Source of the DNA: an uncultured Candidatus Kuenenia sp.
GTDB taxonomy: Bacteria; Planctomycetota; Planctomycetia; Pirellulales; UBA1268
DNA length: 52,442 nt
Reading direction: 5' to 3'
Assembly: GCA_964498325.1 (NCBI GenBank)
Contig: CAZCHF010000016.1
Location: 1-52,442 of the forward strand
The position numbers were made by a program, and so were the translations under genes. Within the stretch, counting starts at the first letter, position 1. Each line of letters starts with the position of its first letter. Positions 1,071-27,280 of this stretch are shown piece by piece. The notes beneath the pieces were generated by a model that ran no database searches, had not been told where the DNA came from, and saw only the letters and a program-made list of their open reading frames with translations.

Positions 1071-1282
1071 TCCAACGCATCGAGCCGAGTTCGAATCATC
1101 CGCTCTGGGCTGCCCGTGTCATTTCGCCGGACGTTCGCTACGGCCATCCCTGGCCTTCGCTTACTCGGAGAAATCTGCGCTTCGCCCTCCGGGCTACGCT
1201 GGCTTTCTACGCCGGCTCCATGACACGGGCGGCCCAGAGCTCGGCCGAACCAAGGTATCGCAGGAATTTTTCGCATAAATAC

Positions 1283-1310
1283 TTGTCAAAAATCCGATCA
1301 ACGCTACATT
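1283..1310 (+). promoter_or_regulatory. Sigma70-like promoter (TTGTCA-16 bp-TACATT) placed so that the sufR-like gene would be leaderless or nearly so
   Basis: Seen in sequence: an AT-rich island with TTGTCA at 1283-1288 and TACATT at 1305-1310. The ATG of the regulator is at 1317, 6 nt after the -10 element. Confidence 0.3.
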
Positions 1311-1316
1311 GAGGTT

Positions 1317-2015
1317 ATGCAGCCGCCAACGAATCAGCCAGACGCCCCCGATGCCCGCTCGAGTGATGCGGCCGTCGTGGATCTTCTCCGGAAGCGGCAG
1401 GCACTGGAAATTGGCGAACTGGCGGAGGCCTTAGAGGTCACAGCAACGGCCGTACGCCAGCGGCTCGAACGCCTCATGAAGGGGGGCTTCGTCGAGCGTT
1501 CCACGGTTTCTCGCCCGCGCGGCCGCCCCGCCCATGCCTACAGGCTGACGGATGCTGGTCGTAGACTCGGCGGCAACAACTTTCGTGACCTTGCCTTGGT
1601 TCTCTGGCGAGAGATCCGCGGGGTTCGCGACCCAGCCGTCAAATCCGGGCTCCTCAAACGGGTCGGCGAGGCACTTGCCGGAGCCTATCGTGACCAGATT
1701 TCTGGGAAAACGACTACGGAAAGGCTCGAAAGCATTGCTTCTATCCTGCGGGAACGGAATATCTGCTGCTCCGTGGAGCAGGCTGCCGGCGATGGAAATC
1801 TCCCGGTCCTCACGAGTCATGCCTGCCCCTACCCCGACCTGGCCGAGGAGGATCGCGGGGTTTGTGCCGCTGAGCGACTCATGCTGCAGGATCTCGTCGG
1901 CTCGGATGTGAGGCTGGCCGAGTGCCGACTCGACGGCGGCGCGACCTGCCGATTCGTCGTGGACGATGGGCCCAAGTCGGAAGCAAAGGCCGGTACTTGC
2001 AGCCCTGGCAGTTAA
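1317..2015 (+). CDS. sufR: Winged-helix (ArsR/DeoR-like) transcriptional regulator with a Cys-rich C-terminal domain, SufR-like
   Basis: N-terminal HTH ([32 protein letters not shown]). C-terminal cysteines (CCSVEQ..C..C) are compatible with an Fe-S sensing domain. Sits at the head of the sufCBD cluster. Confidence 0.55.
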
Positions 2016-2097: not shown

Positions 2098-2745
2098 ATG
2101 AGCGTGACCACCCTCCAACCTCCAACCGTCCCCCAATCCGGCGGCCGCCCTTGGATCGAGGGCCGCTTCGAGGAAAACCTCGTTCTCACGACCGTCGAGC
2201 AGGCGATCAACTGGGCTCGGCAGTCCAGCATTTGGCCGATGACGTTCGGCCTCGCCTGTTGTGCGATCGAAATGATGGCGGCGGGCGCGAGCCGGTATGA
2301 CCTCGACCGCTTCGGTGCCGGCGCCTTCCGGGCCACACCCAGGCAGGCCGACCTCATGATCGTGGCGGGCACGGTCACCTACAAAATGGCCAGCCGCGTT
2401 CGTCGCCTCTACAACCTCATGCCCGATCCAAAATTCGTGATCGCCATGGGCGCCTGCACGACGGGCGGTGGCCCGTACTTCAAGTGGGGCTACCACGTGG
2501 TGAAGGGTGTCGACCTCGTCGTGCCGGTCGACGTCTATGTCCCTGGCTGCCCGCCACGTCCTGAAAGCCTCTTGGAAGGTCTCATGCGAATCCAAGACAA
2601 GATCCTTGGCCAGCGAATCGCCAAGCGGAAGGATGGCCCGGGCAAGATGGCCGACGAACTGCCGGTGCCGCATCACTCGGGCTATGTCGCACCCGCTGTC
2701 GCTAGCGACGAACTCGTCTTCGATCACCAAAAGATTACCGGCTGA
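2098..2745 (+). CDS. nuoB: NADH-quinone oxidoreductase subunit B (NuoB / 20 kDa, [4Fe-4S] N2-type) family protein, standalone
   Basis: Canonical NuoB motifs [38 protein letters not shown] and [16 protein letters not shown] at 2098 (the listed ORF 1966..2745 begins upstream at an alternative start). No other nuo genes adjacent. About 50 aa of C-terminal extension. Confidence 0.85.
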
Positions 2746-2779
2746 AACTGCTGAACACTGAAGGAAAGGGACTGCGTTG

Positions 2780-3628
2780 ATGAGCCAGGCTCGAGACAAA
2801 ATCGTGATCAAGGGTCTTCACGTTGCCGTCGATGGCACGGAGATCCTGCGTGGGGTCGACCTCGAAATCGGCCGTGGTGAAATCCACGCCCTCATGGGCC
2901 CGAACGGCTCCGGCAAGAGCACGCTCGGCTACGCCATCATGGGGCACCCGAACTACGAGGTGACCGCGGGCTCGATCGAGCTTGTCGATGCCGACGGAAC
3001 ATGCCACGACGTCCTCGCGATGGAGCCGGACGAACGGGCCCGTCTCGGGATTTTTCTGGCGTTCCAGCGTCCTATGTCGATCCCCGGGGTGCGGCTGGCC
3101 GAGTTCCTCCGTCACGCCGTCACGAACGTGCGCAATCCCGACCGCAAGGAAGGGGAAGAACTCATGCCGATGAAGGAGTTTCGAAGCGAGCTCAAGTCGA
3201 AGATGGCTGAGCTGTCGATGGACCCCGACTTTGCCCGACGGTATGTCAATGACGGCTTTTCTGGCGGCGAGATGAAGCGAGCCGAAATCCTTCAGCTCGC
3301 GATGCTTCAACCGCGGTTCGCGATCCTGGACGAGACCGACAGCGGCCTCGACGCCGACGCGGTGCGGCTGGCGAGCGAGAGTATCGCGAGAATCGGCGGC
3401 GCTCAGATGGGCATCCTCATCATTACGCACCACGAGCAACTGCTCGAACACAATATCCCACTCAAAACGCACGTCATGCTCGGGGGGCGGATCGTTGAAT
3501 CTGGCGGCCCGGAGTTGGCGGCCGAGCTTCACAAGCGGGGCTACGAGCGCATCCGAGCCGCTTACCCTGAGGCTGCTGCGGTCGAGCGGGCGATGGAAGA
3601 AGCGAAGGCCGAAGCGGTCACCGCCTGA
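2780..3628 (+). CDS. sufC: Fe-S cluster assembly ATPase SufC
   Basis: Walker A GPNGSGKST, ABC signature FSGGEMKR, and the SufC-typical start KIVIKGLHV. The first ATG is at 2780; the listed 2777 is a TTG. Confidence 0.95.
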   Translation: MSQARDKIVIKGLHVAVDGTEILRGVDLEIGRGEIHALMGPNGSGKSTLGYAIMGHPNYEVTAGSIELVDADGTCHDVLAMEPDERARLGIFLAFQRPMSIPGVRLAEFLRHAVTNVRNPDRKEGEELMPMKEFRSELKSKMAELSMDPDFARRYVNDGFSGGEMKRAEILQLAMLQPRFAILDETDSGLDADAVRLASESIARIGGAQMGILIITHHEQLLEHNIPLKTHVMLGGRIVESGGPELAAELHKRGYERIRAAYPEAAAVERAMEEAKAEAVTA

Positions 3629-3664: not shown

Positions 3665-5077
3665 ATGGCAACTGGACTTGACGATACCGCGACGGCGACG
3701 ATCGGCGAGATCAATAAGTACGACTTTCGTACGGACACGCCCTCCGTGTTCAAGGCCCGCAAGGGGCTTGATGCGGAGATCGTCGCTCAGATCTCGGAGA
3801 TGAAGGGCGAGCCTGGCTGGATGCGGGATTTCCGCCTCGAGTCGTTCGAGATCTTCGAGAGCAAGCCGATGCCCAAATGGGGCGGCAACGTCGCGATTGA
3901 TTTCCAAGACATCTACTACTACCTCAAGCCCACCGAGCATCAGGGCAAAACGTGGGAAGAAGTGCCTGATGCGATCAAGAAAACGTTCGACCGACTGGGC
4001 ATCCCGGAGGCCGAGCGCAAGTTCCTGGCCGGCGTGAAGGCCCAATTCGAGAGCGAAGTGGTCTACGGATCGCTTCAGGAGGATCTCTCCAAGAAGGGCG
4101 TGATCTTCACCGACACCGACACGGCGGTCCGCGAGCACTCCGACCTCCTGCGCGAATACTTCGGCACGATCATCCCTCCGACCGACAACAAGTTCGCGGC
4201 GCTCAACTCCGCCGTTTGGTCGGGGGGGTCGTTCATCTACGTTCCCAAGGGCGTCAACATCGAGTTTCCGCTCCAGGCGTATTTCCGAATCAACGCCGAG
4301 AACATGGGGCAGTTCGAGCGCACGTTGATCATCGTGGACGAAGGCGCCCACGTGCACTACGTCGAGGGCTGTACCGCACCGATGTATTCCTCGGAAAGCC
4401 TCCACTCGGCGGTCGTCGAGATCGTGGTGAAGAAGCACGGTCGCTGCCGGTACACGACGATCCAGAACTGGGCCAACAACATCTACAACCTGGTCACCAA
4501 GCGGGCGATGGCCTACGAGGGAGCCCTCATGGAGTGGATCGACGGCAACCTGGGTAGCCACCTCACCATGAAATACCCGGCCGTCTACCTCATGGAGCCA
4601 GGGGCGCGCGGCGAGATTCTCTCGATCGCCTTTGCTTCCTCGGGCCAGCACCAGGATGCCGGGGCCAAGATCGTGCACGCGGCCCCGAACACGAGCGGCC
4701 GGATCGTCTCCAAGAGCATCTCGAAGAACGGCGGCCGTGCCAGCTACCGTGGCCTCGTGAAGGTCGAGCCAGGAGCACACGGAAGCCGGTCAAGCGTCGT
4801 TTGCGACGCGCTCATCCTCGATGACAAGAGCCGCAGCGACACCTATCCCTACATCGAGATCGAGGAGCAAGATGTCTCGATCGGCCACGAGGCGAGTGTC
4901 TCGAAGATCGGCGAGGAGCAGCTCTTTTATCTCATGAGCCGTGGCCTCACCGAAGCCGAGGCCAGCGCCATGATCGTGGGTGGTTTCATCGAGCCGCTCG
5001 TGAAGGAGCTGCCGATGGAATACGCCGTTGAAATGAACAAGCTCATCCAATTGCAGATGGAGGGTTCGGTCGGCTGA
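3665..5077 (+). CDS. sufB: Fe-S cluster assembly scaffold protein SufB
   Basis: 470 aa with the characteristic SufB C-terminal beta-helix region ([13 protein letters not shown] ... [12 protein letters not shown] ... [20 protein letters not shown]). Confidence 0.95.
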
Positions 5078-5109: not shown

Positions 5110-6501
5110 ATGCCCACCGCGACCGCCACTCCACCGTCCTCCGTCCTGAGCCGTTTTGATGCGGCCGGGTTTGATCGTTTTCTGGCCACTTGCCCCGGTG
5201 CGGAATGGTTTACGGCCCTCCGCCGTGAAGCATTCACCGCGTTTGCCTCGCTCGGTCTCCCCGACCGCCGCAGCGAACACTGGATGCGAACCGACCTGCG
5301 GGCGTTCAAGCCGAACGCGTGGGGGTTTGCAGAGCAGCCGGCCGAGTTCGCTGCGCCGCGTGGCCTGCTTGCCGAGGCGATCGAATCGGGGGCTGTCGGA
5401 GAAGACTGCTTCCCGTCGGCCGGATCCCGACCGACGTCAACGAAACTCGCCGGTCGCTTTGTCTCCGTCGATGGCCATGTCGTTCGTGACGAACTTGCCC
5501 CAGAGCTCGCGGCCTGCGGCGTACGGTTCGGGGCTGCTGAGCCGATCCTCACCAGTCTCGAAGGCGAACTTCGCCGCCACTGGTTTTCCGTGATTGACTC
5601 CCGGAGCGACTGGTTCGCGGCTCTTCATGCTGCGTTCCATCGGGCAAGCGCCATCCTTTATGTGCCGCCGGGCGTGACGGTGTCGGAGCCGCTGCACGTC
5701 CTTGCTGCCATCACCCCTGGCGGTGTCGACACGTCGCACGTGCTTGTCGTCTTGGGCGAAGGGGCGACGGCCACGGTGCTCACCGAAACTGCGGGTGGCG
5801 GGCCCGCCGGGTCGACAGGTGGTTTTCACTGCGGCGGCACCGAGATCGTGGTTGGCCGCGGGGCATCGCTGCGGATGGTCAATCTCCAAAATTGGAACAC
5901 GGGCGTCTGGCACGTCGCGCGGCAGAAGGCTGTCGTTCACGCCGGCGGTCGGCTCCAGTGGACTCTCGGGGCACTCGGAAGTCGCATGTCGCAGGTGGCC
6001 CAAGACGTCGCCCTCGTCGGGCGCGAGGCCGAGGCCCAGGTCAACGGCGTGATGTTCACCGAGGGTCGTCAGCACCTCGTCTACAACACGCTGCAGCACC
6101 ATATGGCTCCATCGTGCAAGAGCGACCTGCTCTACAAGGGAGCCCTCCAGGATCGCTCGCGACTCGTGTGGCGCGGCATGATCAAGGTCGACAAGGGCGC
6201 GCAGAAGACCGACGGCTATCAGCGCAATGACAACCTCATGCTGTCGAACGAGTCGCGGGCCGACTCGATCCCGGGTCTCGAGATCGAAGCCGATGACGTT
6301 CGCTGCACCCACGGGGCCACCAACGGCCGGGTCGACGCCGAGCAGGTCTTTTACGCCCAGGCCCGCGGCCTGACTGCCGATGAGGCCGCGCGACTCGTCG
6401 TGGCCGGCTTCTTTCAGCAGGTATTTGATCGGATCACTATTCCGGAGGTGCGTGAGGCCCTGGCCCGCGCCGTTTCGAGCCGGATCCGTCGAATTCGATA
6501 A
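5110..6501 (+). CDS. sufD: Fe-S cluster assembly protein SufD
   Basis: 463 aa, paralogous to SufB (C-terminal ...CTHGATNGRVDAEQVFYAQARGL...). Immediately follows sufB. Confidence 0.9.
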   Translation: MPTATATPPSSVLSRFDAAGFDRFLATCPGAEWFTALRREAFTAFASLGLPDRRSEHWMRTDLRAFKPNAWGFAEQPAEFAAPRGLLAEAIESGAVGEDCFPSAGSRPTSTKLAGRFVSVDGHVVRDELAPELAACGVRFGAAEPILTSLEGELRRHWFSVIDSRSDWFAALHAAFHRASAILYVPPGVTVSEPLHVLAAITPGGVDTSHVLVVLGEGATATVLTETAGGGPAGSTGGFHCGGTEIVVGRGASLRMVNLQNWNTGVWHVARQKAVVHAGGRLQWTLGALGSRMSQVAQDVALVGREAEAQVNGVMFTEGRQHLVYNTLQHHMAPSCKSDLLYKGALQDRSRLVWRGMIKVDKGAQKTDGYQRNDNLMLSNESRADSIPGLEIEADDVRCTHGATNGRVDAEQVFYAQARGLTADEAARLVVAGFFQQVFDRITIPEVREALARAVSSRIRRIR

Positions 6502-6612: not shown

Positions 6613-7383
6613 ATGCACAAATTTGAGCGGGTGATTGAAGCCACCGAAGTTCCCGATCCGGGGAAGACACTCGTCGAGGTGGAAGGGGAGATGGTCGCGC
6701 TCTTCCATGTGGGCGGGCAGTGGTACGCCCTCGATGACGTCTGTACCCATGACGGCGGCCCCCTCGCCGACGGCGAGCTTCGTGATTACCGCATCGCCTG
6801 CCCGCGGCACGGCGCGAAGTTCGACATCCGAACGGGCGCCGCCCTCACCATGCCGGCGGTTCGCCCCACGCGTTCACACGAAGTCAAGGTGGAGGATGGC
6901 GGCGTGTGGGTGAGGCTCCGGGACGTCGCGACAGCGAATGGACCGGCGGCGCACGCCGTCGGGATGACATCGGCATCGCCCCCCTCCCCTGCCCCGACCT
7001 CTGCTTCAAATCCTTCCGGTGACGCGACAAGTCAGCCCGTCAGTGTCGCTCCCGCAACTGGCCCCCTCTGCGAAGACACGGTTCGCGAGACGCTCAAGGA
7101 GGTCAAAGATCCAGAGCTTTTCGTGAACATCGTCGACCTCGGCTTGATCTATGACGTCTCGATCACCCCTGGCTCGACCGACACGGCAAAACATGCGCTG
7201 ACCATCAACATGACGATGACGAGCCCGGCTTGCCCTGCCGGTCCTCAACTCATCGCTGACACGAAGCGAGTGCTCGGCCAGCGCCCCGACGTGGAGAGCG
7301 TCGAGGTCCGCATCGTCATGGATCCCCCGTGGACGCCCGACCGGATGACCGAGGCCGCTCGCGACCAACTGGGCATTTTCTAG
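6613..7383 (+). CDS. Rieske [2Fe-2S] ferredoxin domain fused to a SufT/DUF59 (MIP18-family Fe-S assembly) domain
   Basis: N-terminal Rieske motifs CTHDGGPL...CPRHGAKF. A Pro/Ser-rich linker. C-terminal DUF59 hallmarks (VKDPELFVNIVDLGLIYDV...TMTSPACPAGP...). Last gene of the suf cluster. Confidence 0.85.
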   Translation: MHKFERVIEATEVPDPGKTLVEVEGEMVALFHVGGQWYALDDVCTHDGGPLADGELRDYRIACPRHGAKFDIRTGAALTMPAVRPTRSHEVKVEDGGVWVRLRDVATANGPAAHAVGMTSASPPSPAPTSASNPSGDATSQPVSVAPATGPLCEDTVRETLKEVKDPELFVNIVDLGLIYDVSITPGSTDTAKHALTINMTMTSPACPAGPQLIADTKRVLGQRPDVESVEVRIVMDPPWTPDRMTEAARDQLGIF

Positions 7384-7466: not shown

Positions 7467-8459
7467 ATGCGTGTGCTTCTTTATGAGTGGTGCTGTTCCG
7501 GTGGGCTCGTAGGCGGCGACGATTCGATCGCAGCTGAAGGTCGAATGATGCTCGAGGCCTTGGTCGCCGATGCAGCCAAGAATGCGGCCCTTGAGATCGC
7601 CGTGCTCGTCGACACGGTGCCCCCTCTGACACTCCCGCCGCAGGCCCGCATAATTCCAGTGCCGCCGGGCCACGATGCCGAAGCGCTGGTTGCCGCGGCG
7701 CTCGACGCCGACTGGACGATCATCGTGGCTCCAGAGAGCGACGGGATTCTCCTCGACCGTATTCGACGCGTCCGTGCGGCAGGAGGGCGAGTTGTGGCAC
7801 CCCAAGACCGCGTGATCGATGTCTGTTCCGACAAACAGGCCACGATCGACGCCCTCGCAGCCCATGGCGTTCCCGTTCCAGCCGGTCGTGCACTCGAACC
7901 CGGCATGCCGATCCCACCGGGCTTCCACATGCCGGCCGTACGGAAAGCCCGCACTGGCTGCGGCTGCGCAGACCTCTCCTTCGTGAGCTCATCGGAGGTC
8001 ACGGCGACTGCAGTGCCCACGCGGCTCGAAGCCTTCGTGCAAGGAACTCCCGTCGGTGTCTCGCTGCTGGCAGGGCCTCTGGGGCCTGTGGCACTCCCTC
8101 CCATGCAGCAACGTTTTTCGGTCGACGATTCCCCGCGGTATCTCGGGAGCGATGTGCTGGCTGACGACGAGGCTGCCGCCCGCGCGACCGCCCTGGCGAC
8201 GCGAGCCGCCCATGCCATCGATGCCGATGGCGGCTGGATCGGCGTCGATCTCGTTCTTGGCGAGCGGCCCGACGGCCGCGACGACCGTGTTCTCGAAATC
8301 AACCCACGGATGACGACATCGATCGCAGGGCAGACGTCCCTGTTTGCATCGAGCCTCGTCGCGGCCATGATCGAGGCTGCCGAGGGACGGTCGCCGTGCC
8401 TTGAAAGAGCTTTTTCGTCCGGACCGCGTCCGGGATCGTTTTCGCTCCCTGTCGCCTGA
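7467..8459 (+). CDS. ATP-grasp superfamily protein (carboligase-like)
   Basis: ATP-grasp C-terminal motifs (GWIGVDLVLGERPDGRDDRVLEINPRMTTS). Architecture and context resemble the ATP-grasp accessory gene (orf7-like) of H4MPT-linked C1-transfer clusters. Confidence 0.65.
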   Translation: MRVLLYEWCCSGGLVGGDDSIAAEGRMMLEALVADAAKNAALEIAVLVDTVPPLTLPPQARIIPVPPGHDAEALVAAALDADWTIIVAPESDGILLDRIRRVRAAGGRVVAPQDRVIDVCSDKQATIDALAAHGVPVPAGRALEPGMPIPPGFHMPAVRKARTGCGCADLSFVSSSEVTATAVPTRLEAFVQGTPVGVSLLAGPLGPVALPPMQQRFSVDDSPRYLGSDVLADDEAAARATALATRAAHAIDADGGWIGVDLVLGERPDGRDDRVLEINPRMTTSIAGQTSLFASSLVAAMIEAAEGRSPCLERAFSSGPRPGSFSLPVA

Positions 8460-8477
8460 CCGGAGACCGACGACTCC

Positions 8478-9509
8478 ATGCAGCTTCGTTCTGACGCTAT
8501 CGCCTTCGACATCGGCGGCGCCAATATCAAGGCGACCAATGGCACGGACTGGGTGGCGACCATCCCGTTCCCTCTCTGGAAGCGCTGGAAGGAGCTCCCC
8601 GACGCACTCGGCTCGCTGACTGAAAAGCATCGCCCGATCCGGCTCGTCGCGACGATGACCGGGGAGATTTGTGACTGCTACCCGTCGCGAGAGGCTGGAG
8701 TGGCGCATATCGTCCAATCGCTGATCACGGCGTCGGATGCCGTGGGGTGCCGTGAGACTCCCGGCGTGTACCTCGTGGATGGACGGATCGTTCCTGCCGC
8801 AGAGGCCACTCGAGCCTGGCCGCTGGCATCGGCATCGAACTGGCACGCCGTCGCGCGCCTGGCCGGTTCCATCGCGCCGACGGCTCGGGTGTTTCTCGTC
8901 GATACAGGGTCGACGACCACCGACATCATCCCCGTGGATCACGGAACCCCTGTGCCCCTTGCGTTCGACGACCCGGGGCGAATGCGATCCGGTGAGCTCG
9001 TCTACACGGGCATGGAGCGAACGGCGGTGGCGGCCATCGTCCGGCGGCTTCCCCATCGCAATATCTGGCGCCGGGTGGCAAGCGAGCTCTTTGCCGAGTC
9101 GCGCGACGCCTGGCTCACCCTCGGCGAGATTCCTGCCAACGCCGACGCCCATGACACGGCTGACGGCGGTCCGGCCACCCGCGCGGCGGCCAGGGTCCGA
9201 CTCGCCCGCATGATGCTCCTCGATCCCGATGCCTTCGACGAGCGGGATGCGATCGTCGCCGCGTCGTGGATCGCTGACCGACAGGCGGCGCAGGTTGCGC
9301 GGGCTGCCCGCCGCGTGGCCAAGGCGATCGGTTGGATTCCTGATGCGTTCGTGATTTCCGGGCACGGCGACGCCCTGGTCGCCCGAGCCATTGCAGCGAC
9401 CGGATGGCATCCGCGACGCGTTTCGATTGCCGAAACCATCGGCCTGAACGGAGCCAGGGTCGCGCCCGCGTGGGCCCTGGCCCTCATCGCCCGCGGAGCG
9501 ATCCCATGA
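8478..9509 (+). CDS. Hydantoinase/oxoprolinase-N-like protein (H4MPT-linked C1 transfer pathway orf5-like)
   Basis: An ASKHA-like N-terminus IAFDIGGANIKAT, and ...FLVDTGSTTTDIIPV... typical of hydantoinase_A-like proteins that co-occur with an ATP-grasp gene. Confidence 0.55.
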   Translation: MQLRSDAIAFDIGGANIKATNGTDWVATIPFPLWKRWKELPDALGSLTEKHRPIRLVATMTGEICDCYPSREAGVAHIVQSLITASDAVGCRETPGVYLVDGRIVPAAEATRAWPLASASNWHAVARLAGSIAPTARVFLVDTGSTTTDIIPVDHGTPVPLAFDDPGRMRSGELVYTGMERTAVAAIVRRLPHRNIWRRVASELFAESRDAWLTLGEIPANADAHDTADGGPATRAAARVRLARMMLLDPDAFDERDAIVAASWIADRQAAQVARAARRVAKAIGWIPDAFVISGHGDALVARAIAATGWHPRRVSIAETIGLNGARVAPAWALALIARGAIP

Positions 9510-10087
9510 CGATCGCCTGGCAACATGGCATCGTCCGCGGTTCCGAGGCGCGGCCGATCGCACCGATCCTGAAGGTTGGGGGGAGTCTGCTTGCGTCGCC
9601 CGAGTGGCCCGCAGCCCTTACGGATCTCACGAGCCAAATCGATCGGCCGCTCCTGGTCGTGGGAGGAGGTGGCATCGTCGATGGTCTCCGCACGATCGAT
9701 GCCGCGAATCCTCGCCCGCCCCGACTCATGCACGACCTTGCAATTCATGCCATGTCGCTCACCGCCCGTCTGGTTGCCGATGCGCTCGGCCTCCGCGTGG
9801 TGTCCTGCCCGCGCGTCTTGACGCCGGCGGTCTTGGACATCGCCGATTGGCTCGCCACCGCCGAGCGCCCTCCGACGATCCCGGTCGGCTGGGAGGTCAC
9901 CAGCGATTCCCTCGCGGCCGTGGCAGCCGTAGCCAGCGACCGATCATTGATCCTGGCCAAAAGCGTGCCCCCCCCTCCGCATGCGATGTCGATACCGTCC
10001 CTTGCTCACGCGAACTGGGTCGATGCCTGGTTTCCCACAGCGATCGGCCCGACGACTGCCGTCTGTTGGGCGGCACCTGCTCGGTGA
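9506..10087 (+). CDS. Amino-acid kinase family (aspartate/glutamate/uridylate kinase-like) protein
   Basis: PILKVGGSLL...LLVVGGGGIVDGLR is the amino-acid kinase fold signature. The ATG at 9506 overlaps the upstream stop (ATGA), implying translational coupling. Confidence 0.55.
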   Translation: MTIAWQHGIVRGSEARPIAPILKVGGSLLASPEWPAALTDLTSQIDRPLLVVGGGGIVDGLRTIDAANPRPPRLMHDLAIHAMSLTARLVADALGLRVVSCPRVLTPAVLDIADWLATAERPPTIPVGWEVTSDSLAAVAAVASDRSLILAKSVPPPPHAMSIPSLAHANWVDAWFPTAIGPTTAVCWAAPAR

Positions 10088-11330: not shown

Positions 11331-12743
11331 TCACGGCGTTGCCTCGCCCCTCGTCAGTTCCAGGCACACCAGCCGATTCGGCCCGCGAACATACAGCATG
11401 CCGTGCGCCAAGACGGGAGCCGTCCAGGCGGGATACCGCACCAAACGCTCCGGCTCGGCATTCGGGCCAGTGCCGTCGCCCACCAGTGGAATCTCAGGAC
11501 CGGCCTGAAACGCTTCGGGCGAAGCACGAAACACGAAGAGGGATCCATTCTCGAGGAGGCAGAAAAAATGTCCCTCCACCAGCAACAGGCTGCCTCGGCC
11601 GAGCCCCGGCTGCGACCATTTGATTTCTCCTGTCTTCCACTCGATGCACCGCAACTCCGCGTCGGCGATGTGCCGCCCGCTGCATGCATAGACATGCCCT
11701 GCATGGTGGATCGGCGTGCTCCAATGGCACTGCAGGATCTTGTGACGCTTCTTCGCCTCGTCCTGCCAGACGACGTCGCAGCGCCCCGGCTGCACGCGGA
11801 GGAGCGCGGCACCCGGTCCGTAGGTTTCGCTGATGAGCACCTCGTCCCCCACGACCACCGGATTGGCGGCATTGACGCTGTCTCGAATGGACGACCGCCA
11901 AGGGAAGTGAAAATCCTGACGGCCTGTCGTGGGATCGAAGCCAAGCAGGCCACCACGCGCAAACACGAATCCCCACCGTCGACCTTCGATCGTGGCCATC
12001 GTCGGGCTCGCATAGCTTGCCAGCTCATCGCTGAACTGGTATCGCACGTCACCAGTTCGCTTGTCGAATGCCACCACGCCCGAGTCGTCACCACGGACAC
12101 GTTCGAGTTGGCCGGGAGCCACCGTGCGACTCGACTCAGGGGAGCCGCCAACGTTGGCGATCAGGAGGTCTCCCTCGACCACCGGCGTGCTGCCGACGCC
12201 GAAGAAGTTCTGTACCACACCGAATCGCTTGGACGTATCGACCTTCCAGATCACCGTGCCGTCGACGACCGAGAGACAGTGAAGTTCTCCCTCGGCCCCC
12301 ATGATGTAGACGTGATCACCGTCGACGACGGGGCAACACCGCGGCCCATTGTCGTAGCCGTAGAGATCCTCGTACGCGGTGGGGTACTCAAAAGCCCACA
12401 ACGGCTCGCCGGTCCCTGACCGAAGGCACTCGAGCCGATTCCTCTCTCCCGTTCGCGAAAAGAGAAACAGACGGCCCCGGCTGATGGTCGGCGCCGCATA
12501 ACCTGTACCGGTCTCACGGTGCCAGCGCACGCGTGCGCCCCGCAGGCGGCCGTCGAGGAAGAAACCCGTCTCGCTCGACTTCCCGTCGCCGGTCGGCCCG
12601 AGGAAGGCGGGCCAATCCACTCCCGCGCGTCGTTCCTCGACGTCGGGAACTTCACCCTCCGCGGCGACACAGGCGACCGCGAGACACAGGCTTCCAGTCA
12701 GCAGACGCGTCCAAAATACCGTGGGACAAGTCCGCCGCTGCAT
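11331..12743 (-). CDS. Secreted PQQ-like (BamB/YVTN-type) beta-propeller repeat protein, paralog 1
   Basis: Signal peptide, then repeated propeller blades (GYAAPTISRGRLFLF, VDGDHVYIMGAEGELHCL, FFGVGSTPVV, GVVAFDKRTG, RCIEWKTGEIKWSQP). Roughly half of the residues are shared with the protein at 23568-24959. Confidence 0.8.
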   Translation of the reverse strand: MQRRTCPTVFWTRLLTGSLCLAVACVAAEGEVPDVEERRAGVDWPAFLGPTGDGKSSETGFFLDGRLRGARVRWHRETGTGYAAPTISRGRLFLFSRTGERNRLECLRSGTGEPLWAFEYPTAYEDLYGYDNGPRCCPVVDGDHVYIMGAEGELHCLSVVDGTVIWKVDTSKRFGVVQNFFGVGSTPVVEGDLLIANVGGSPESSRTVAPGQLERVRGDDSGVVAFDKRTGDVRYQFSDELASYASPTMATIEGRRWGFVFARGGLLGFDPTTGRQDFHFPWRSSIRDSVNAANPVVVGDEVLISETYGPGAALLRVQPGRCDVVWQDEAKKRHKILQCHWSTPIHHAGHVYACSGRHIADAELRCIEWKTGEIKWSQPGLGRGSLLLVEGHFFCLLENGSLFVFRASPEAFQAGPEIPLVGDGTGPNAEPERLVRYPAWTAPVLAHGMLYVRGPNRLVCLELTRGEATP

Positions 12744-12749
12744 GACCGG

Positions 12750-14096
12750 CTACCAATACCAGCCGTCGGCCTTGCGGCCACCCAGGGCGACTTCGCGAGC
12801 TGCCGCCAAGCCTGGCTCATCGCGGGTCTTCGTCGCAAACTCCCAGGGCTGAAACTGGATTCCGCCGGAGACAATGACCCAGTTCCCGCCCTTCTTCTCA
12901 CTCTTGACTTCCGTTGGAATCTGCTCGGGCACGTCATACTTCACCATTGGAAGTCGCTTCGCATCGAGCAGCAGGCTGAGGTCAAGACCCGCTCGTTGGT
13001 CGAGTTGACGACCGTGGAGAAGCGCGGCTACGACGGCCAAGTCGACGCAGTTGACAAGTTCTGCAAACACCGGATGACTGGCGGTGAGTGCATCGTAATG
13101 GGTGGTCATCGCCTCACACCACCGCGCCGCGACGGGATCGCGTCGCCCCGCCCCGCGCTCGACACCATCCCGGCCGGCGACGTCAGTTTCAGTCAGGCAC
13201 TTCATGCGACGGCCGTTGATCTGCCATGCCAGTTCATCGGGGTCACGAGCGATGGGGTCGTACTCGGCTTCGAGCCAGAACCGCGGGAGCTCCGCCTTGC
13301 CCCCGGGAGGCACCATCGCAAGAAAGCTCGGCAGCCCGTTCACACCAGATCCTTCGAGCCCCATCCCGATCCGTTTCATCCGATAGTCTGCCGCCACGAG
13401 AACCCGAGCAAACCGGCTGTCGCCTGGAACACCGCCGACTCGCACCGTCTGAGGCCCGACCGCTTCCTTCATTCCACGCAGCACGGCTTCCGGATTGGGG
13501 CCGATCGTTCGCTGGGTCGCAAGAAATTTCTGGAGGTTGGCAATGCCCTGAGGCGTGGGATCGATGGAGCATTGGATCCCTCCTTGGCGAGCGGCGTCGA
13601 TGGCCCTCATCGCCACGATCAGATCCTCGAGGCAAAGCAGTGGCCGGCGGCTTCGAGCACCGACGAACGTTCCATCGGCGGCGACGGTGATGCGATCGGC
13701 CGGCCCGGCCAAGATGACATCCTTGCCGTCGGGATCGACGAAGACATGCGTGACACGCTCGAGCCCGCCGAGGAACAGCACTTCCGGCGCCAGCGGCTGA
13801 GCCTTGTCGATGGAGTCTTGGACGGCCGCGACCACCTTGGCCAGCGACACCTTGCGGAGGTCGGCGGCAGCACCGATGCCTTCGCCAATGGCAGCCCGCC
13901 GCTCCGCAGCCAGGGCCTCGATCGCCTGGGGTTCGAGGTTGCGAACGATCCCCTCGGCATCGATCGAAATACCGCCGACGCCCTGGAAACCGAATCCGCC
14001 ACCGCCGCCGAACTGAGCGGCAGACCTGTTTTCCAGTACCACGATCAGCCCGCAGGCCATCAGGCACGCGAAAACCCAAGTCCGGGAAAGACTCAT
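12750..14096 (-). CDS. Secreted hypothetical protein (Planctomycete DUF1598-like) with an N-terminal signal peptide and a Gly-rich segment
   Basis: Signal-like N-terminus MSLSRTWVFACLMACGLIVVLE, followed by GGGGGFGFQGVGG. 448 aa. Divergent from the sigma54 activator gene. Confidence 0.6.
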   Translation of the reverse strand: MSLSRTWVFACLMACGLIVVLENRSAAQFGGGGGFGFQGVGGISIDAEGIVRNLEPQAIEALAAERRAAIGEGIGAAADLRKVSLAKVVAAVQDSIDKAQPLAPEVLFLGGLERVTHVFVDPDGKDVILAGPADRITVAADGTFVGARSRRPLLCLEDLIVAMRAIDAARQGGIQCSIDPTPQGIANLQKFLATQRTIGPNPEAVLRGMKEAVGPQTVRVGGVPGDSRFARVLVAADYRMKRIGMGLEGSGVNGLPSFLAMVPPGGKAELPRFWLEAEYDPIARDPDELAWQINGRRMKCLTETDVAGRDGVERGAGRRDPVAARWCEAMTTHYDALTASHPVFAELVNCVDLAVVAALLHGRQLDQRAGLDLSLLLDAKRLPMVKYDVPEQIPTEVKSEKKGGNWVIVSGGIQFQPWEFATKTRDEPGLAAAREVALGGRKADGWYW

Positions 14097-14249
14097 GAAA
14101 CCCTCATTGCAGCGCGGAGAAAGCGAACAAACAATAGATCGTTAGCCGCAATGCTAGTCTGGGCTGGCGCAGGCGACAAACCCGATTCCATCGGGAAAAC
14201 CGGGCCCAATTCGGCCCCAGTGGATACCCAAGGCGATTTTGGCCCCCCC

Positions 14250-16193
14250 ATGACGACAAGCGGCACGTCCTCGTATCTCCGAGTCAACGATCCCGTCATG
14301 GGCCTGAGCGTTGTGCCGCTCGTCGTCGGCGAGCGGGTCACGCTGGGCAGGGCTCCTGAGAACCAAGTGGTTCTTCGCGACGAGCGGGCCAGCCGCTTCC
14401 ACGCCGAGGTCTTCGCCTCGGGGAGCGTCTGGATGGCTCGCGACCTCGAGAGTCGGAACGGGACTATCGTGGCTGGAGAGCGCATTGCGGTCGACCGCCC
14501 ACTCGTGCCGGGTGACGTGCTTCGTATCGGCCTGGCAGAGATCACCTTCTGCGAGGGGGACCCTGCCGACGCCACCACCGGAGCGATGGCCACAGCCGGC
14601 ACGGGGACGATGCCCGCTGATCTCGAAGCATGGCGCGCATCGATCGTCCATCGCCGCACTTCGAGCCGACTCCTGGAAGACATCGGAAGCGCCACGGGCG
14701 CGGTGCCCCGAGTAAGCCGTGCTGCGGCCGCCCTTTGCCGCCTCGCCTTCGGGCTCGGTCGTGCCACGAATCTTCCCGAGATCGCGCGCCTCGCACTCGC
14801 GGCAGCCATTTCCGACACGGCTGCGACGCGAGGCGTGGTCTTTCTCCCCGAGCGATTTGAGCCGAGCATGAGGAGCGATGCCGACGATCTCGTGCCGGTT
14901 GCAGGTATTCCTGCCCCGTGGCCCTGCCCCTATCCGCACGGCATCGTGACCACGGTGCTCGCTGGCGACGAGGCGATTCTCGCCACTCCTGCGCGCACCG
15001 ACGCGGGAGCGGTGACCACGATTTCGGCGCCTGTTCGATCACGAGGCTACGCCGTCGGGGTGATGCACCTCGAACTCGAACCGGGGGACCATGCGGCCGC
15101 CCCCGACGACCTCGAGTTCGTGCTCGCCGTGTGCGAAGCGCTCGGGCTGGCCCTCGACAACCTTTCGACTCGCGAAGCCCTTTCCGTGCAGCTTGCGACG
15201 GCGTCGGACGAAAACGCGCGGCTGCGGCAACGGCTCGGTGAAGAGCCTCGCATCATCGGTGGAAGCGAAGCGCTTCGAAACATCCTGGGGCAGATCGAGC
15301 GTGTCGCCGGCACGAAGGCGACCGTGCTCGTGCGGGGCGAAAGTGGCTCCGGCAAGGAGCTCGTCGCCCGAGCCATTCACGAGGCGAGCGATCGACGAAC
15401 CCGTCCATGCATCACGCTCAACTGTGCCGCCCTCTCCGAAACGCTTCTCGAGAGCGAGCTCTTCGGCCACGAAAAAGGGGCGTTCACCGGCGCCACGGAA
15501 AAAAAGATCGGGAAGTTCGAAGCGGCGCACCGGGGCACGCTCGTCCTCGACGAAATCGGCGAGATGAGCCCGGCCATTCAGGCCAAGTTTCTCCGGGTAC
15601 TCGAAGGGCATCCCTTCGAGCGCGTCGGGGGCTCCACACGGGTGCAGGTCGACGTCCGCGTCGTGGCCGCCACCAATCGTGACCTCGAGGCGGCGGTCAA
15701 GGCCGGTGAGTTTCGTCGCGACCTCTATTTTCGACTCAAGGTCGTGGAGATCGTGGTGCCACCGTTACGGCGGCGGCCGGAAGACATCGAACTCTTGGCG
15801 ACGCATTTCCTGGGACGGTTCGCCGCCGAGACCGGCCGCAAGATCAAGGGCTTTACCCGCGAGGCGATGGCCGCGATGCGTGCGTGCCAGTGGCCTGGCA
15901 ACATTCGTGAACTCCGCAATGTCGTCGAGCGGGCCGTCGTTCTCGCCCATGGCGAATGGATCGACGCCGACGACATGGTGCTCTCGTCGCTCGGGCCGGC
16001 CGGCGACACGGGCAAGGCCAAGGCCGGCCACACCGGTCCTTTCGTCCCGACGACGCTCGACGAAATGGAACGCCGCCATGTCTTTGCCACGCTCGAAGCG
16101 GTCGGCGGCAACAAGACCAAGGCCGCCGCCATTCTCGGCATCGAACGATCCACGCTTGATCGCAAGCTCGCCAAGTGGGCCAAGGCCTCATAG
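14250..16193 (+). CDS. Sigma-54-dependent transcriptional activator with N-terminal FHA domain and central GAF-like domain (FHA-GAF-AAA+-Fis HTH)
   Basis: FHA core ([25 protein letters not shown]...[12 protein letters not shown]). AAA+ motifs GESGSGKE and [16 protein letters not shown]-terminal Fis-type HTH ([15 protein letters not shown]). The 5' part of the giant listed ORF 12519..16193 is an antisense artefact. Confidence 0.9.
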
Positions 16194-24959: not shown

Positions 24960-25150
24960 TTCTTCCCCTCTGTCCTTGTCGCGGCCGATCTCCCTGAGCA
25001 CACACCGGCTTTTCCCGAGCCGGAATGGTGGTGGTCGCCCTCTGCCACCCAACGTCGTCTCCTTGCGGAAGGGCCGTCGACCGTTCTATCCTTCTGTTCT
25101 GCGCGGGATGGAAGTACCTTCAACCGTGAGCTCATTGAAGAGATTTGTTG

Positions 25151-27280
25151 ATGCTACTCCACGAATGTGCGCGCGGACATCAGTGGCAGGGTTCGGAAAG
25201 CGCCGATGACGTTTGCCCGAACTGCGGCGCTCCCGCCGAGACGGTTCGAATGGCCGGAAACAACCTGGAGACCAGCCCTCATGTCACCGGACCAGGCAAT
25301 GAGCCGGCCGAGACGATCGCGGGCGACTCGGTCCCGGCCGGATCGACCGGAGTCCCCGTATCCTTCCCGAAGCTCGAAGGATATGTCATCGAGAAAGAAC
25401 TCGGCCGGGGCGGCATGGGCGTTGTGTACAAGGCGAAGCACCTCAAGCTCGAGCGGTCGGTCGCCATCAAAATGATCCTGGGGGCCGCCGCGGCAGACCC
25501 GGAGTATCGCCATCGCTTCCAGATCGAAGTACGGGCCGTTGCCCAGTTGCAGCACCCCAACGTCGTGCAGATCTTCGAGGTCGGTGAGCATGAGGGGCAA
25601 CCGTACTCGGCCTTCGAGTTTCTCGAAGGGGGCAGTCTCGACGACAAATACAAGGGCAAGCCACAACCGTTCCGTGAAGCGGCGAAACTCATCGAGACGC
25701 TGGCCCGCGGCATTCACGCTGCCCACGAACAGCGCATCGTCCATCGCGATCTCAAGCCGGCCAACATCCTTTTCACCAAGGACGGCACGGCCAAGATCTC
25801 CGACTTCGGCCTCGCCAAGCGGGTCGATTCGGATATCGGCAAAACCCAGACCGGCATGATCATGGGCACGCCGGGCTACATGGCCCCCGAGCAGGCTTCA
25901 GGCCACACCAATCTCATCGGTCCTCCTGCCGACATCTACGCCCTTGGTGCCATGCTCTACGAGCTTTTGACCGGGAGGCCGCCGTTTGTTGCCAACACTG
26001 GATGGGACGTCATCAGCAAGGTCGTCTCCGAGGAGCCGCGTCCGCCATCGACACTTCGCCGTCAGGTGCCGCGCGACCTGGAAACGATCTGTCTCAAGTG
26101 CCTCGAGAAGTCGCCGGATCGCCGCTACTCCAGTGCCGCGGGGCTGGCCGACGAGCTTCGCTCCTTCCTCGACGGCGACTCGATCCAAGCTCGCCCGGTG
26201 GGCCGTCTCGAACGCACGCTGCGATGGGCTCGGCGGAATCCCGGCCTGGCTTCCGCCGTTGCCACGATGCTCGTTGCCGTCGGCGTGTTCGGCGGCGCAT
26301 TCGCGGTCATTCGGAACGCCACGGCCGGCCACGGCGCACCGTTCGTCGTCAACACGCCGCTCGGCCTGCCGCCGGTGACCGTGCCGGGCGACAACCCGCT
26401 CACCGTGGAGAAAGTGTCCCTTGGCGAGCAGCTCTTCTTCGATCCTCGGCTCTCGAAGGACAACTCCGTGAGCTGCGCGACGTGCCACGTGCCGTCGAAC
26501 GGCTACGGCGATGGGCTGGACACCAGCGTCGGCATCGGAGGGCAGAAGGTGAGTCGCAACTCGCCGACGATCGTCAATAGCGCGTACTGGCATCAGCTCT
26601 TCTGGGACGGTCGGGCGCACAGCCTCGAAGAACAGGCCCTGGGCCCGCTATTCAATCCGGCCGAGATGGGACTGTCCCGCCACACCGAGCTCGAGGAAAG
26701 ACTCAACGCCATTCCTGGATACCGAAAGCAGTTTCAGGCGGTCTTCCGAACTGACGTGACGACACACAACGTCGCCAAAGCGATCGCCGCCTTCGAACGG
26801 ACGCTCGTGGCGGGCAACGCACCTTTCGATCGCTTCAAGGCGGGCGATGAGTCCGCACTGTCCGAGCAAGCCCAGCGTGGCTTGAAGCTATTCTTGAACA
26901 AAGCGCATTGCAGCGCCTGCCATGTAGGGCCCTCGTTCAGCGACGGCGGCTACCACAACCTCGGCGTCAGCATCGACACCGATAATCCCGATATCGGTCG
27001 GCAAGCGGAGCACAACCTGCTCGGCAATCGCGGCGCCTTCAAAACCCCTTCGCTCCGCGACATCGCCCGCTCCGCGCCCTATATGCACGACGGGAGCATT
27101 GCGACCCTCGAGGAGGTCGTGGAGTTCTACAACAGGGGGGGCACGCCAAACGCCCAGCTCGACGAGGAGATCTTCCCGCTCAACCTCACCGACCAAGAGA
27201 AGCAAGACCTGGTCACGTTCCTGAAAGAAGGGCTCACCAGTGACGACTATCCCGAGATCCAGCCCCCGAAACTGCCCTAG
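25151..27280 (+). CDS. Transmembrane Ser/Thr protein kinase (Hanks-type) with N-terminal zinc-ribbon-like segment and a C-terminal periplasmic di-heme cytochrome c peroxidase (CCP/MauG-family) domain
   Basis: Kinase motifs GRGGMGVVYKA, HRDLKPANIL, DFGLA, GTPGYMAPE. One TM helix (LASAVATMLVAVGVFGGAFAVI, ~26243-26310). Two CxxCH heme sites (CATCH ~26473-26487, CSACH ~26909-26923). CCP signatures FWDGRA and FKTPSLRDIARSAPYMHDGS. The first ATG is at 25151; the listed 25145 is a TTG. Confidence 0.85.
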   Translation: MLLHECARGHQWQGSESADDVCPNCGAPAETVRMAGNNLETSPHVTGPGNEPAETIAGDSVPAGSTGVPVSFPKLEGYVIEKELGRGGMGVVYKAKHLKLERSVAIKMILGAAAADPEYRHRFQIEVRAVAQLQHPNVVQIFEVGEHEGQPYSAFEFLEGGSLDDKYKGKPQPFREAAKLIETLARGIHAAHEQRIVHRDLKPANILFTKDGTAKISDFGLAKRVDSDIGKTQTGMIMGTPGYMAPEQASGHTNLIGPPADIYALGAMLYELLTGRPPFVANTGWDVISKVVSEEPRPPSTLRRQVPRDLETICLKCLEKSPDRRYSSAAGLADELRSFLDGDSIQARPVGRLERTLRWARRNPGLASAVATMLVAVGVFGGAFAVIRNATAGHGAPFVVNTPLGLPPVTVPGDNPLTVEKVSLGEQLFFDPRLSKDNSVSCATCHVPSNGYGDGLDTSVGIGGQKVSRNSPTIVNSAYWHQLFWDGRAHSLEEQALGPLFNPAEMGLSRHTELEERLNAIPGYRKQFQAVFRTDVTTHNVAKAIAAFERTLVAGNAPFDRFKAGDESALSEQAQRGLKLFLNKAHCSACHVGPSFSDGGYHNLGVSIDTDNPDIGRQAEHNLLGNRGAFKTPSLRDIARSAPYMHDGSIATLEEVVEFYNRGGTPNAQLDEEIFPLNLTDQEKQDLVTFLKEGLTSDDYPEIQPPKLP

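Follow-up and report, generated by a model that had tools for sequence, protein, structure and literature searches.

A complex I nuoB gene located within the suf operon of Pirellulales

Introduction

NuoB is the homologue of PSST, Nqo6 and NDUFS7, and it carries the terminal [4Fe-4S] cluster (N2) of complex I. Together with NuoD it forms the quinone site of the enzyme, and complex I cannot work without it. Complex I-like enzymes of 11 subunits, which lack NuoE, NuoF and NuoG, include the cyanobacterial NDH-1 and the enzyme of Desulfitobacterium. Among the suf operons for Fe-S cluster assembly, those controlled by SufR are represented by the cyanobacterial sufR / sufBCDS arrangement and the actinobacterial sufR-sufBDCSU operon.

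Here, we analysed a stretch of planctomycete DNA of 52,442 bases (the whole of which is referred to as the window) in which a nuoB gene is placed between the gene of a SufR-like regulator and sufC-sufB-sufD. Full-text searches of the literature gave no description of nuoB within a suf operon. An initial annotation had suggested that the gene was a complex I subunit paralogue with a new role beside the SUF machinery. The obtained results point to a different explanation, to which we assign a probability of about 0.8: the gene is a bona fide complex I nuoB, most likely the only copy, which moved from the nuo cluster into the suf operon of Pirellulales and is probably co-transcribed there under SufR-like control.

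The suf locus

The features of the locus are listed in Table 1. The sufC, sufB and sufD genes are contiguous on the + strand, and the product of each scored above its equivalog cutoff. The sufC ORF opens with a TTG codon at 2777, and the ATG at 2780 is the likelier start. Homologues of nuoA, nuoC, nuoD, nuoH, nuoI, nuoJ, nuoK, nuoL, nuoM and nuoN were not detected in the 52,442-base window by tblastn, or by Pfam searches of the large ORFs scanned. This confirmed the initial annotation in its statement that nuoA, nuoC and nuoD do not flank the gene, which lies within a SUF operon.

Table 1. Features of the nuoB-suf locus, with positions in the window.
Feature	Position	Strand	Evidence
Candidate promoter with overlapping imperfect palindrome (candidate operator)	1266-1310	+	Consensus scan; conservation in relatives
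SufR-like transcription regulator, winged helix and C-terminal four-cysteine motif	1317-2015	+	Pfam; TIGR02702, sub-threshold
nuoB, complex I subunit B	2098-2745	+	Family scores, cysteine ligands, orthology, tail comparison
sufC, Fe-S assembly ATPase	2777-3628	+	TIGR01978, 302.3 bits (cutoff 212.8)
sufB	3665-5077	+	TIGR01980, 710.3 bits (cutoff 346.4)
sufD	5110-6501	+	TIGR01981, 256.4 bits (cutoff 222)
Rieske [2Fe-2S] ferredoxin fused to SufT-type domain (FeS_assembly_P/DUF59)	6613-7383	+	Pfam

The gene that follows sufD encodes a fusion protein, in which the Rieske domain (residues 7-88) and the FeS_assembly_P domain (residues 154-232) are connected by a linker rich in Pro, Ser and Ala. Separate Rieske and SufT genes were seen in L002, L003 and L168; the two genes are adjacent in Aeoliella, L168 and most other relatives, and inserted genes part them in Pirellulimonas nuda. 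No Aminotran_5 or NifU_N/SufE match, which would indicate sufS, sufE or sufU, was obtained among the ORFs scanned at 1-12 kb of the window. The cysteine desulfurase and the sulfur acceptor are presumably encoded outside the suf operon of the window.

Several other genes of the window were also characterised. ATP-grasp_3, Hydantoinase_A and amino-acid-kinase-like genes are located 3' of the suf genes at 7467-10087 (+) and adjoin them also in Aeoliella, P. nuda and L168; we take them to resemble accessory genes of the H4MPT-linked C1 pathway of Planctomycetes. In a single ORF of 711 aa (25145-27280, +), a Ser/Thr protein kinase domain at residues 80-332 is followed by a di-haem cytochrome c peroxidase/MauG domain at residues 422-569, an unusual fusion. 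An ORF of 1224 aa at 12519-16193 (+) is probably over-extended in GC-rich DNA. Only its C-terminal part is gene-like, with FHA from residue 607, sigma-54 AAA+ at residues 912-1154 and HTH_8, and the strand opposite its first half carries a DUF1598 gene (12750-14096) and an ORF at 14093-14869.

Conservation of the gene order

The order regulator-nuoB-sufC-sufB-sufD was observed in at least 17 loci (L001-L010, L012, L020, L081 and L168-L171); in L005 and L171 the regulator region is missing or truncated by the contig end. The carriers of this order include the complete genomes of Aeoliella sp. SH292 and Pirellulimonas nuda, MAGs of Bythopirellula, Pirellulaceae, Thermoguttaceae and others, and contigs of a marine Rhodopirellula sp., and the order spans three families, namely Lacipirellulaceae, Pirellulaceae and Thermoguttaceae. 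Among the genome-scan loci with the conserved order, NuoB is 61-86% identical to that of the window. The exact protein of the window was traced only to a contig of 1.6 kb, and the closest proteins, at 78-97% identity, belong to Aeoliella, Pirellulimonas nuda, Rhodopirellula sp. and Pirellulales MAGs. The conserved order may extend beyond sufD to the Rieske, SufT and ATP-grasp genes and further. In none of the 17 loci was another nuo gene present within 10 kb.

Two loci, L011 (2334-10451) and L013 (4355-9384), contain an orphan nuoB with neither the regulator nor suf genes nearby. The neighbourhood in L011 is that of a Pirellulales locus (Dus, Na/Ala symporter, DUF1598 and sigma-54/FHA activator), and L013 has only DUF1598 in common with such a neighbourhood, with an IS200-type transposase just 5' of its orphan nuoB. 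The linkage of the stand-alone gene to suf, whose co-occurrence the initial annotation had raised, is therefore not obligatory.

An independent suf-nuoB adjacency was noted in an unrelated bacterium (L070, 4101-14682; DATGHZ010000008.1, SMAG_U9794). The genes there are arranged as sufC, sufB, sufD, Rieske, a sufS-like Aminotran_5 gene, NifU_N/sufU, nuoB, nuoD, a Fer4 nuoI-like gene, nuoC and a molybdopterin oxidoreductase gene, with nuoB overlapping the stop codon of sufU. Neither nuoA nor nuoH was detected in the locus and no membrane subunits are in view, and it has the appearance of a membrane-less B-D-I-C module joined to a suf operon.

Complex I genes in the lineage

The remaining complex I genes were approached through NuoD. 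A search with a planctomycete NuoD profile gave only Phycisphaerae-like proteins, and the NuoD of Planctomycetia was reached via a 50% representative library, cluster and context look-ups, and a metagenome scan. A further homologue search returned NuoD of the Planctomycetaceae/Thalassoglobus type and not the NuoD of Pirellulimonas nuda or Aeoliella. In L084 and L085, nuoI-like, nuoA, nuoC and nuoD genes were found with a nuoA-nuoC gap of 50 nt, and nuoB is absent. The metagenome scan with Planctomycetia NuoD yielded 80 loci, and both nuoA and nuoC are visible in 64. In all but two of the latter (62/64), nuoA is directly followed by nuoC with no nuoB between them, the median gap being 110-135 nt. 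Across ~800 kb of these NuoD loci no NuoB match was observed except in L162 and L165, where NuoB groups with Gemmataceae.

The NuoD loci formed two tiers, one at 73-82% that is Planctomycetaceae/Thalassoglobus-like and one at 62-68% that comprises Pirellulales, Pirellulaceae, Lacipirellulaceae and Rhodopirellula sp., names that were assigned via membership of 90% identity clusters. The full Pirellulales-type cluster consists of a nuoI-like gene, DUF2203, nuoA, nuoC, nuoD, nuoH, nuoJ, nuoK, nuoL, nuoM and nuoN, and nuoB is the one core gene of the 11-subunit enzyme that is absent from it. Neither nuoE, nuoF nor nuoG was found near this cluster. With regard to its layout, the nuoI-like gene heads the Pirellulales cluster instead of following nuoH, and the DUF2203 gene was located between this nuoI-like ferredoxin gene and nuoA in L172 (7655-20297) as well as in L135, L137, L150 and L154.

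The sequence composition of the contigs was also compared. The nuoB-suf contig of the marine Rhodopirellula sp. (L168) has a GC content of 48.5%, compared with 48.0% for L172 and 47.7% for L174, which carry the nuo cluster. The tetranucleotide correlation of L168 with L172/L174 was 0.85, and correlations with other loci did not exceed 0.45. The unusual composition common to these contigs fits one population carrying both loci. Given that complex I requires NuoB and that the nuo cluster of the lineage lacks its gene, the suf-embedded gene would have to be the functional nuoB of the lineage, and it is probably the only one, as judged from gene order and composition at the lineage level. The initial annotation had asked whether a full nuo operon with its own nuoB exists elsewhere in the genome; at the level of the lineage, the Pirellulales-labelled nuo clusters on metagenome contigs are without nuoB. 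Gene order and composition point, again for the lineage, to a probably sole nuoB with the other nuo genes elsewhere, which is the situation that the initial annotation itself had named as contrary to its reading.

Regulator and candidate promoter

The winged-helix domain of the regulator matched MarR, HTH_5 and PadR in Pfam. The TIGR02702 model (SufR_cyano) aligned with the regulator from end to end (residues 21-213; profile positions 7-206 of 208), and the score of 49.5 bits is below the equivalog cutoff of 178.8. The label sufR given by the initial annotation is therefore retained only in the weaker form SufR-like. Three of the C-terminal cysteines (C170, C183 and C211) are invariant, and the fourth, C203, is conserved in 9/10 orthologues; the spacing is C-X12-C-X19-C-X7-C. 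These conserved residues are predicted to be able to bind an Fe-S cluster.

A candidate promoter was identified 5' of the regulator gene, with a -35 element TTGTCA at 1283-1288 and a -10 element TACATT at 1305-1310. The -10 element ends 6 nt 5' of the regulator ATG (1317), which suggests that the mRNA may be leaderless. The palindrome of the window, ATTTTT...TTGTCAAAAAT, covers 1266-1293. In the consensus scan, promoter-like sites were no more numerous in the region than in shuffles. Of 13 related loci, 10 have the sequence TTGTCAAAAA(T), with at most one mismatch, 5' of the regulator gene, and TAnnAT was recognised by eye 16-17 nt downstream of it in 9 of these 10. Some of the related loci also show the left arm ATTTTTCAAAC. 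A sigma-70-like promoter (TTGTCA, 16-17 nt, TAnnAT) is kept 5' of the regulator, and in several relatives it is overlapped, at the -35 element, by the imperfect palindrome ATTTTTCAAAC-N5-GTTGTCAAAAAT; the promoter-like site and palindrome were observed together in L004, L007, L008, L002, L081, L003, L012 and L009.

In L004, L007 and L008 the palindrome has the core CAAAC-N5-GTTG, which we take to be one mismatch away from the cyanobacterial SufR box CAAC-N6-GTTG. In the window, the palindrome is more degenerate than in relatives. A scan of the window for the cyanobacterial box, with one mismatch allowed, gave 12 matches against 15 expected, and none of them is near the operon. The palindrome at 1266-1293 is regarded as a candidate operator of the SufR-like repressor.

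Operon structure was then considered from the spacers. All of the genes are on the same strand, with 82 nt between the regulator gene and nuoB and 31-34 nt between nuoB and sufC, and nothing resembling a terminator was identified in the window from the regulator gene through nuoB to sufC. The short inverted repeats of the spacers were uninformative. Comparison of the related loci revealed no conserved motif between the regulator gene and nuoB, and the only conserved promoter and palindrome lie 5' of the regulator. It is therefore plausible, as the initial annotation had suggested, that nuoB is a regulatory target of the SufR-like regulator, and we lean towards its co-transcription with the regulator and sufCBD under the control of Fe-S status.

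An accidental position is the main rival to such co-regulation. In that case, the gene would still be a true nuoB of complex I, but the heavy scrambling of gene order in Planctomycetia would have left it in the suf operon as a frozen accident, with its own promoter and no Fe-S-linked regulation. The nuo genes are indeed fragmented across the phylum: in Gemmata, nuoB and nuoC are parted by unrelated genes, and the cluster of Planctomycetaceae-type contigs ends with nuoD, nuoH-N being detached. The orphan nuoB genes of L011 and L013 agree with this scenario, as do the variable spacers of the relatives, which range from 7 to ~260 nt between the regulator gene and nuoB and from an overlap to ~210 nt between nuoB and sufC. 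The spacer of ~210 nt occurs in L007 and L008, where internal promoters are possible. However, the order was kept in every examined Pirellulales-type locus that includes suf, through three families and over a NuoB identity range of 61-86%, and it is the promoter 5' of the regulator that is conserved, with no shared motif directly before nuoB and no terminator-like site on the way to sufC. We therefore consider the accidental position possible but rather unlikely.

Identity and descent of NuoB

The nuoB ORF has an ATG start and encodes a product of 215 aa. This product matched PF01058 (Oxidored_q6) in Pfam with 98.3 bits (E 3.6e-28; cutoff 27), and the NCBIfam models TIGR01957 (nuoB_fam) with 231.3 bits (cutoff 142.7) and NF005012 with 238.9 bits (cutoff 116). 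With lineage-specific PRK equivalog models, the scores remained under the respective cutoffs (for example, 260.9 bits where 312 is required). Solved PSST/NDUFS7/Nqo6 chains of complex I were matched with E-values of 5e-59 to 9e-56 (190-202 bits), the best of these being the PSST chain 7arc_B (E 5e-59), and the identity to mitochondrial PSST is ~65% over residues 28-172. The NuoB of the window has the four cluster-N2 cysteines, including the tandem CC, and the PGCPP motif, and so does each of the 14 related copies, whether suf-linked or orphan. The NuoB hallmarks that the initial annotation had listed, namely the CC..C..C ligands and the sequence blocks it quoted, were all recovered in the product.

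Operon-linked NuoB proteins of other Planctomycetota, taken from four Phycisphaerae loci, a Planctomycetales-labelled MAG, five Gemmataceae loci and several other MAGs, are 66-82% identical to the NuoB of the window; for those encoded beside nuoA in Phycisphaerae, Gemmataceae and the Planctomycetales-labelled MAG, the range is 71-82%. In these organisms, nuoB adjoins nuoA in nuoI-like/nuoA/nuoB(/nuoC/nuoD) clusters, with nuoC displaced or out of view in some. In a neighbour-joining tree, the suf-linked copies and the two orphan copies formed one clade inside the planctomycete NuoBs, which groups with the operon-linked Phycisphaerae and Gemmataceae clades, and branch lengths are ordinary except for L020. 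A simple relative-rate check gave a mean core identity to 56 non-planctomycete NuoB of 60.4% for the suf-linked and 60.5% for the operon-linked planctomycete proteins. The gene of the window is a vertical orthologue of the operon-encoded planctomycete nuoB, and its rate is not accelerated.

The C-terminal tail of the protein provided a further comparison. In the window, 62 residues follow PGCPP, against ~24-37 in most bacterial NuoB. The extension reported by the initial annotation is thus present, but its size is ~25-40 aa and not ~50 aa. The tail contains LPVPHHSGY, which includes its LPVP core, and further on VFDHQKITG. Operon-linked Gemmataceae NuoB has a related tail (PVPxRTG...LPxEL), and the NuoB of Verrucomicrobia has a shorter LPVP/FPVP motif (ELPVP or EFPVP) with a looser likeness. 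The tail therefore predates the relocation, and a suf-specific adaptation was ruled out.

The initial annotation had favoured an extra NuoB paralogue outside complex I, repurposed as an Fe-S carrier, scaffold partner or electron donor for SufBCD. A position in the suf operon that is conserved across Pirellulales families would suit such a role, and L070, where nuoB comes directly after sufCBD-Rieske-sufS-sufU, hints that the adjacency of SUF and NuoB is not random. However, the nuo cluster of the lineage retains no canonical nuoB of which the gene could be a paralogue, and the nested position in the tree comes with neither a long branch nor rate acceleration. The ~65% identity to mitochondrial PSST extends over the whole core, which implies ordinary constraint on its contacts with NuoD, NuoC and NuoH. 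The age of the tail and the retention of the gene in L011 and L013 without suf neighbours likewise oppose a SUF-specific function. The proposed repurposing thus found no support, and we regard it as very improbable.

A small subunit of another complex I-like enzyme (an energy-converting [NiFe] hydrogenase of the Mbh/Ech/Hyc kind, or an Fpo/NDH-type module) in place of NADH:quinone oxidoreductase is likewise very improbable. PF01058 is indeed common to all these families, and the nuo cluster of the lineage is without nuoEFG, which bears on the electron donor of the enzyme, but complex I NuoB/PSST scored ~200 bits against 108 for MbhJ (5e-30), 88 for HycG (5e-24) and 26-30 for FrhG (2e-6), and the large subunit of the lineage matches the Complex1_49kDa NuoD within a nuoA-C-D-H-J-K-L-M-N cluster. 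A hydrogenase small-subunit identity was accordingly rejected on the family and PDB scores.

Proposed model

From these observations, we propose that nuoB would have left its slot between nuoA and nuoC in an ancestor of the Pirellulales and the Planctomycetaceae-type lineages. In Pirellulales, it would now reside between the SufR-like regulator gene and sufC-sufB-sufD, with the remaining complex I genes encoded elsewhere and the NuoB product presumably assembling into complex I as normal. A single promoter 5' of the regulator may drive the regulator, nuoB and sufCBD, and an Fe-S-sensing SufR-like repressor could control this promoter via the overlapping palindrome. If the genes are co-transcribed, synthesis of the N2 subunit would accompany that of the machinery by which its cluster is loaded. 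A more far-reaching version is that the supply of NuoB acts as a checkpoint tying the assembly of the complex I quinone module to Fe-S status, with NuoB made only with SufBCD, and perhaps loaded directly by it, and with L070 as a second invention of the same principle. We consider this version doubtful and offer it as speculation.

Nothing mechanistic departs from known NuoB or known SUF systems. The gene most likely encodes an ordinary complex I NuoB in an unusual, lineage-wide gene position and not a new kind of protein. This removes a false lead, as a real nuoB is found in an unexpected place and no orphan complex I paralogue with a new job is required. It also has a practical consequence: where an automated pathway call demands that the nuo genes be contiguous, Pirellulales and Planctomycetaceae-type genomes will wrongly be scored as having an incomplete complex I. 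The locus presents the gene of an Fe-S client stably embedded between the SUF regulator and scaffold genes across a whole bacterial order, and it offers a simple setting in which a possible co-regulation of Fe-S supply with the assembly of the respiratory chain could be tested.

Comparison with known systems

Compared with NuoB/Nqo6/PSST, the NuoB of the window shares the family models, the four cysteines, the length of the conserved core and the close identity to mitochondrial PSST, and its lineage has the partner genes nuoA, nuoC, nuoD, nuoH, nuoI and nuoJ-N. It differs in that the gene is located inside a suf operon and not between nuoA and nuoC, and in the C-terminal extension of 25-40 aa.

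The 11-subunit enzymes without NuoEFG offer a parallel at the level of the whole enzyme. The cluster of the lineage provides A, C, D, H, I and J-N with no E, F or G nearby, and the relocated B completes the 11 core subunits. In contrast to those enzymes, one of the 11 genes is here physically apart and embedded in an Fe-S biogenesis operon.

Like the SufR-controlled suf operons of cyanobacteria and actinobacteria, the locus has a winged-helix regulator with a four-cysteine motif adjoining sufC, sufB and sufD; a palindrome that may serve as an operator overlaps its candidate promoter. Unlike in those operons, the regulator falls below the equivalog cutoff and there is no sufS, sufE or sufU in the operon. 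The gene of a client protein, nuoB, intervenes before sufC, directly after the regulator gene, and a Rieske ferredoxin and SufT follow sufD.
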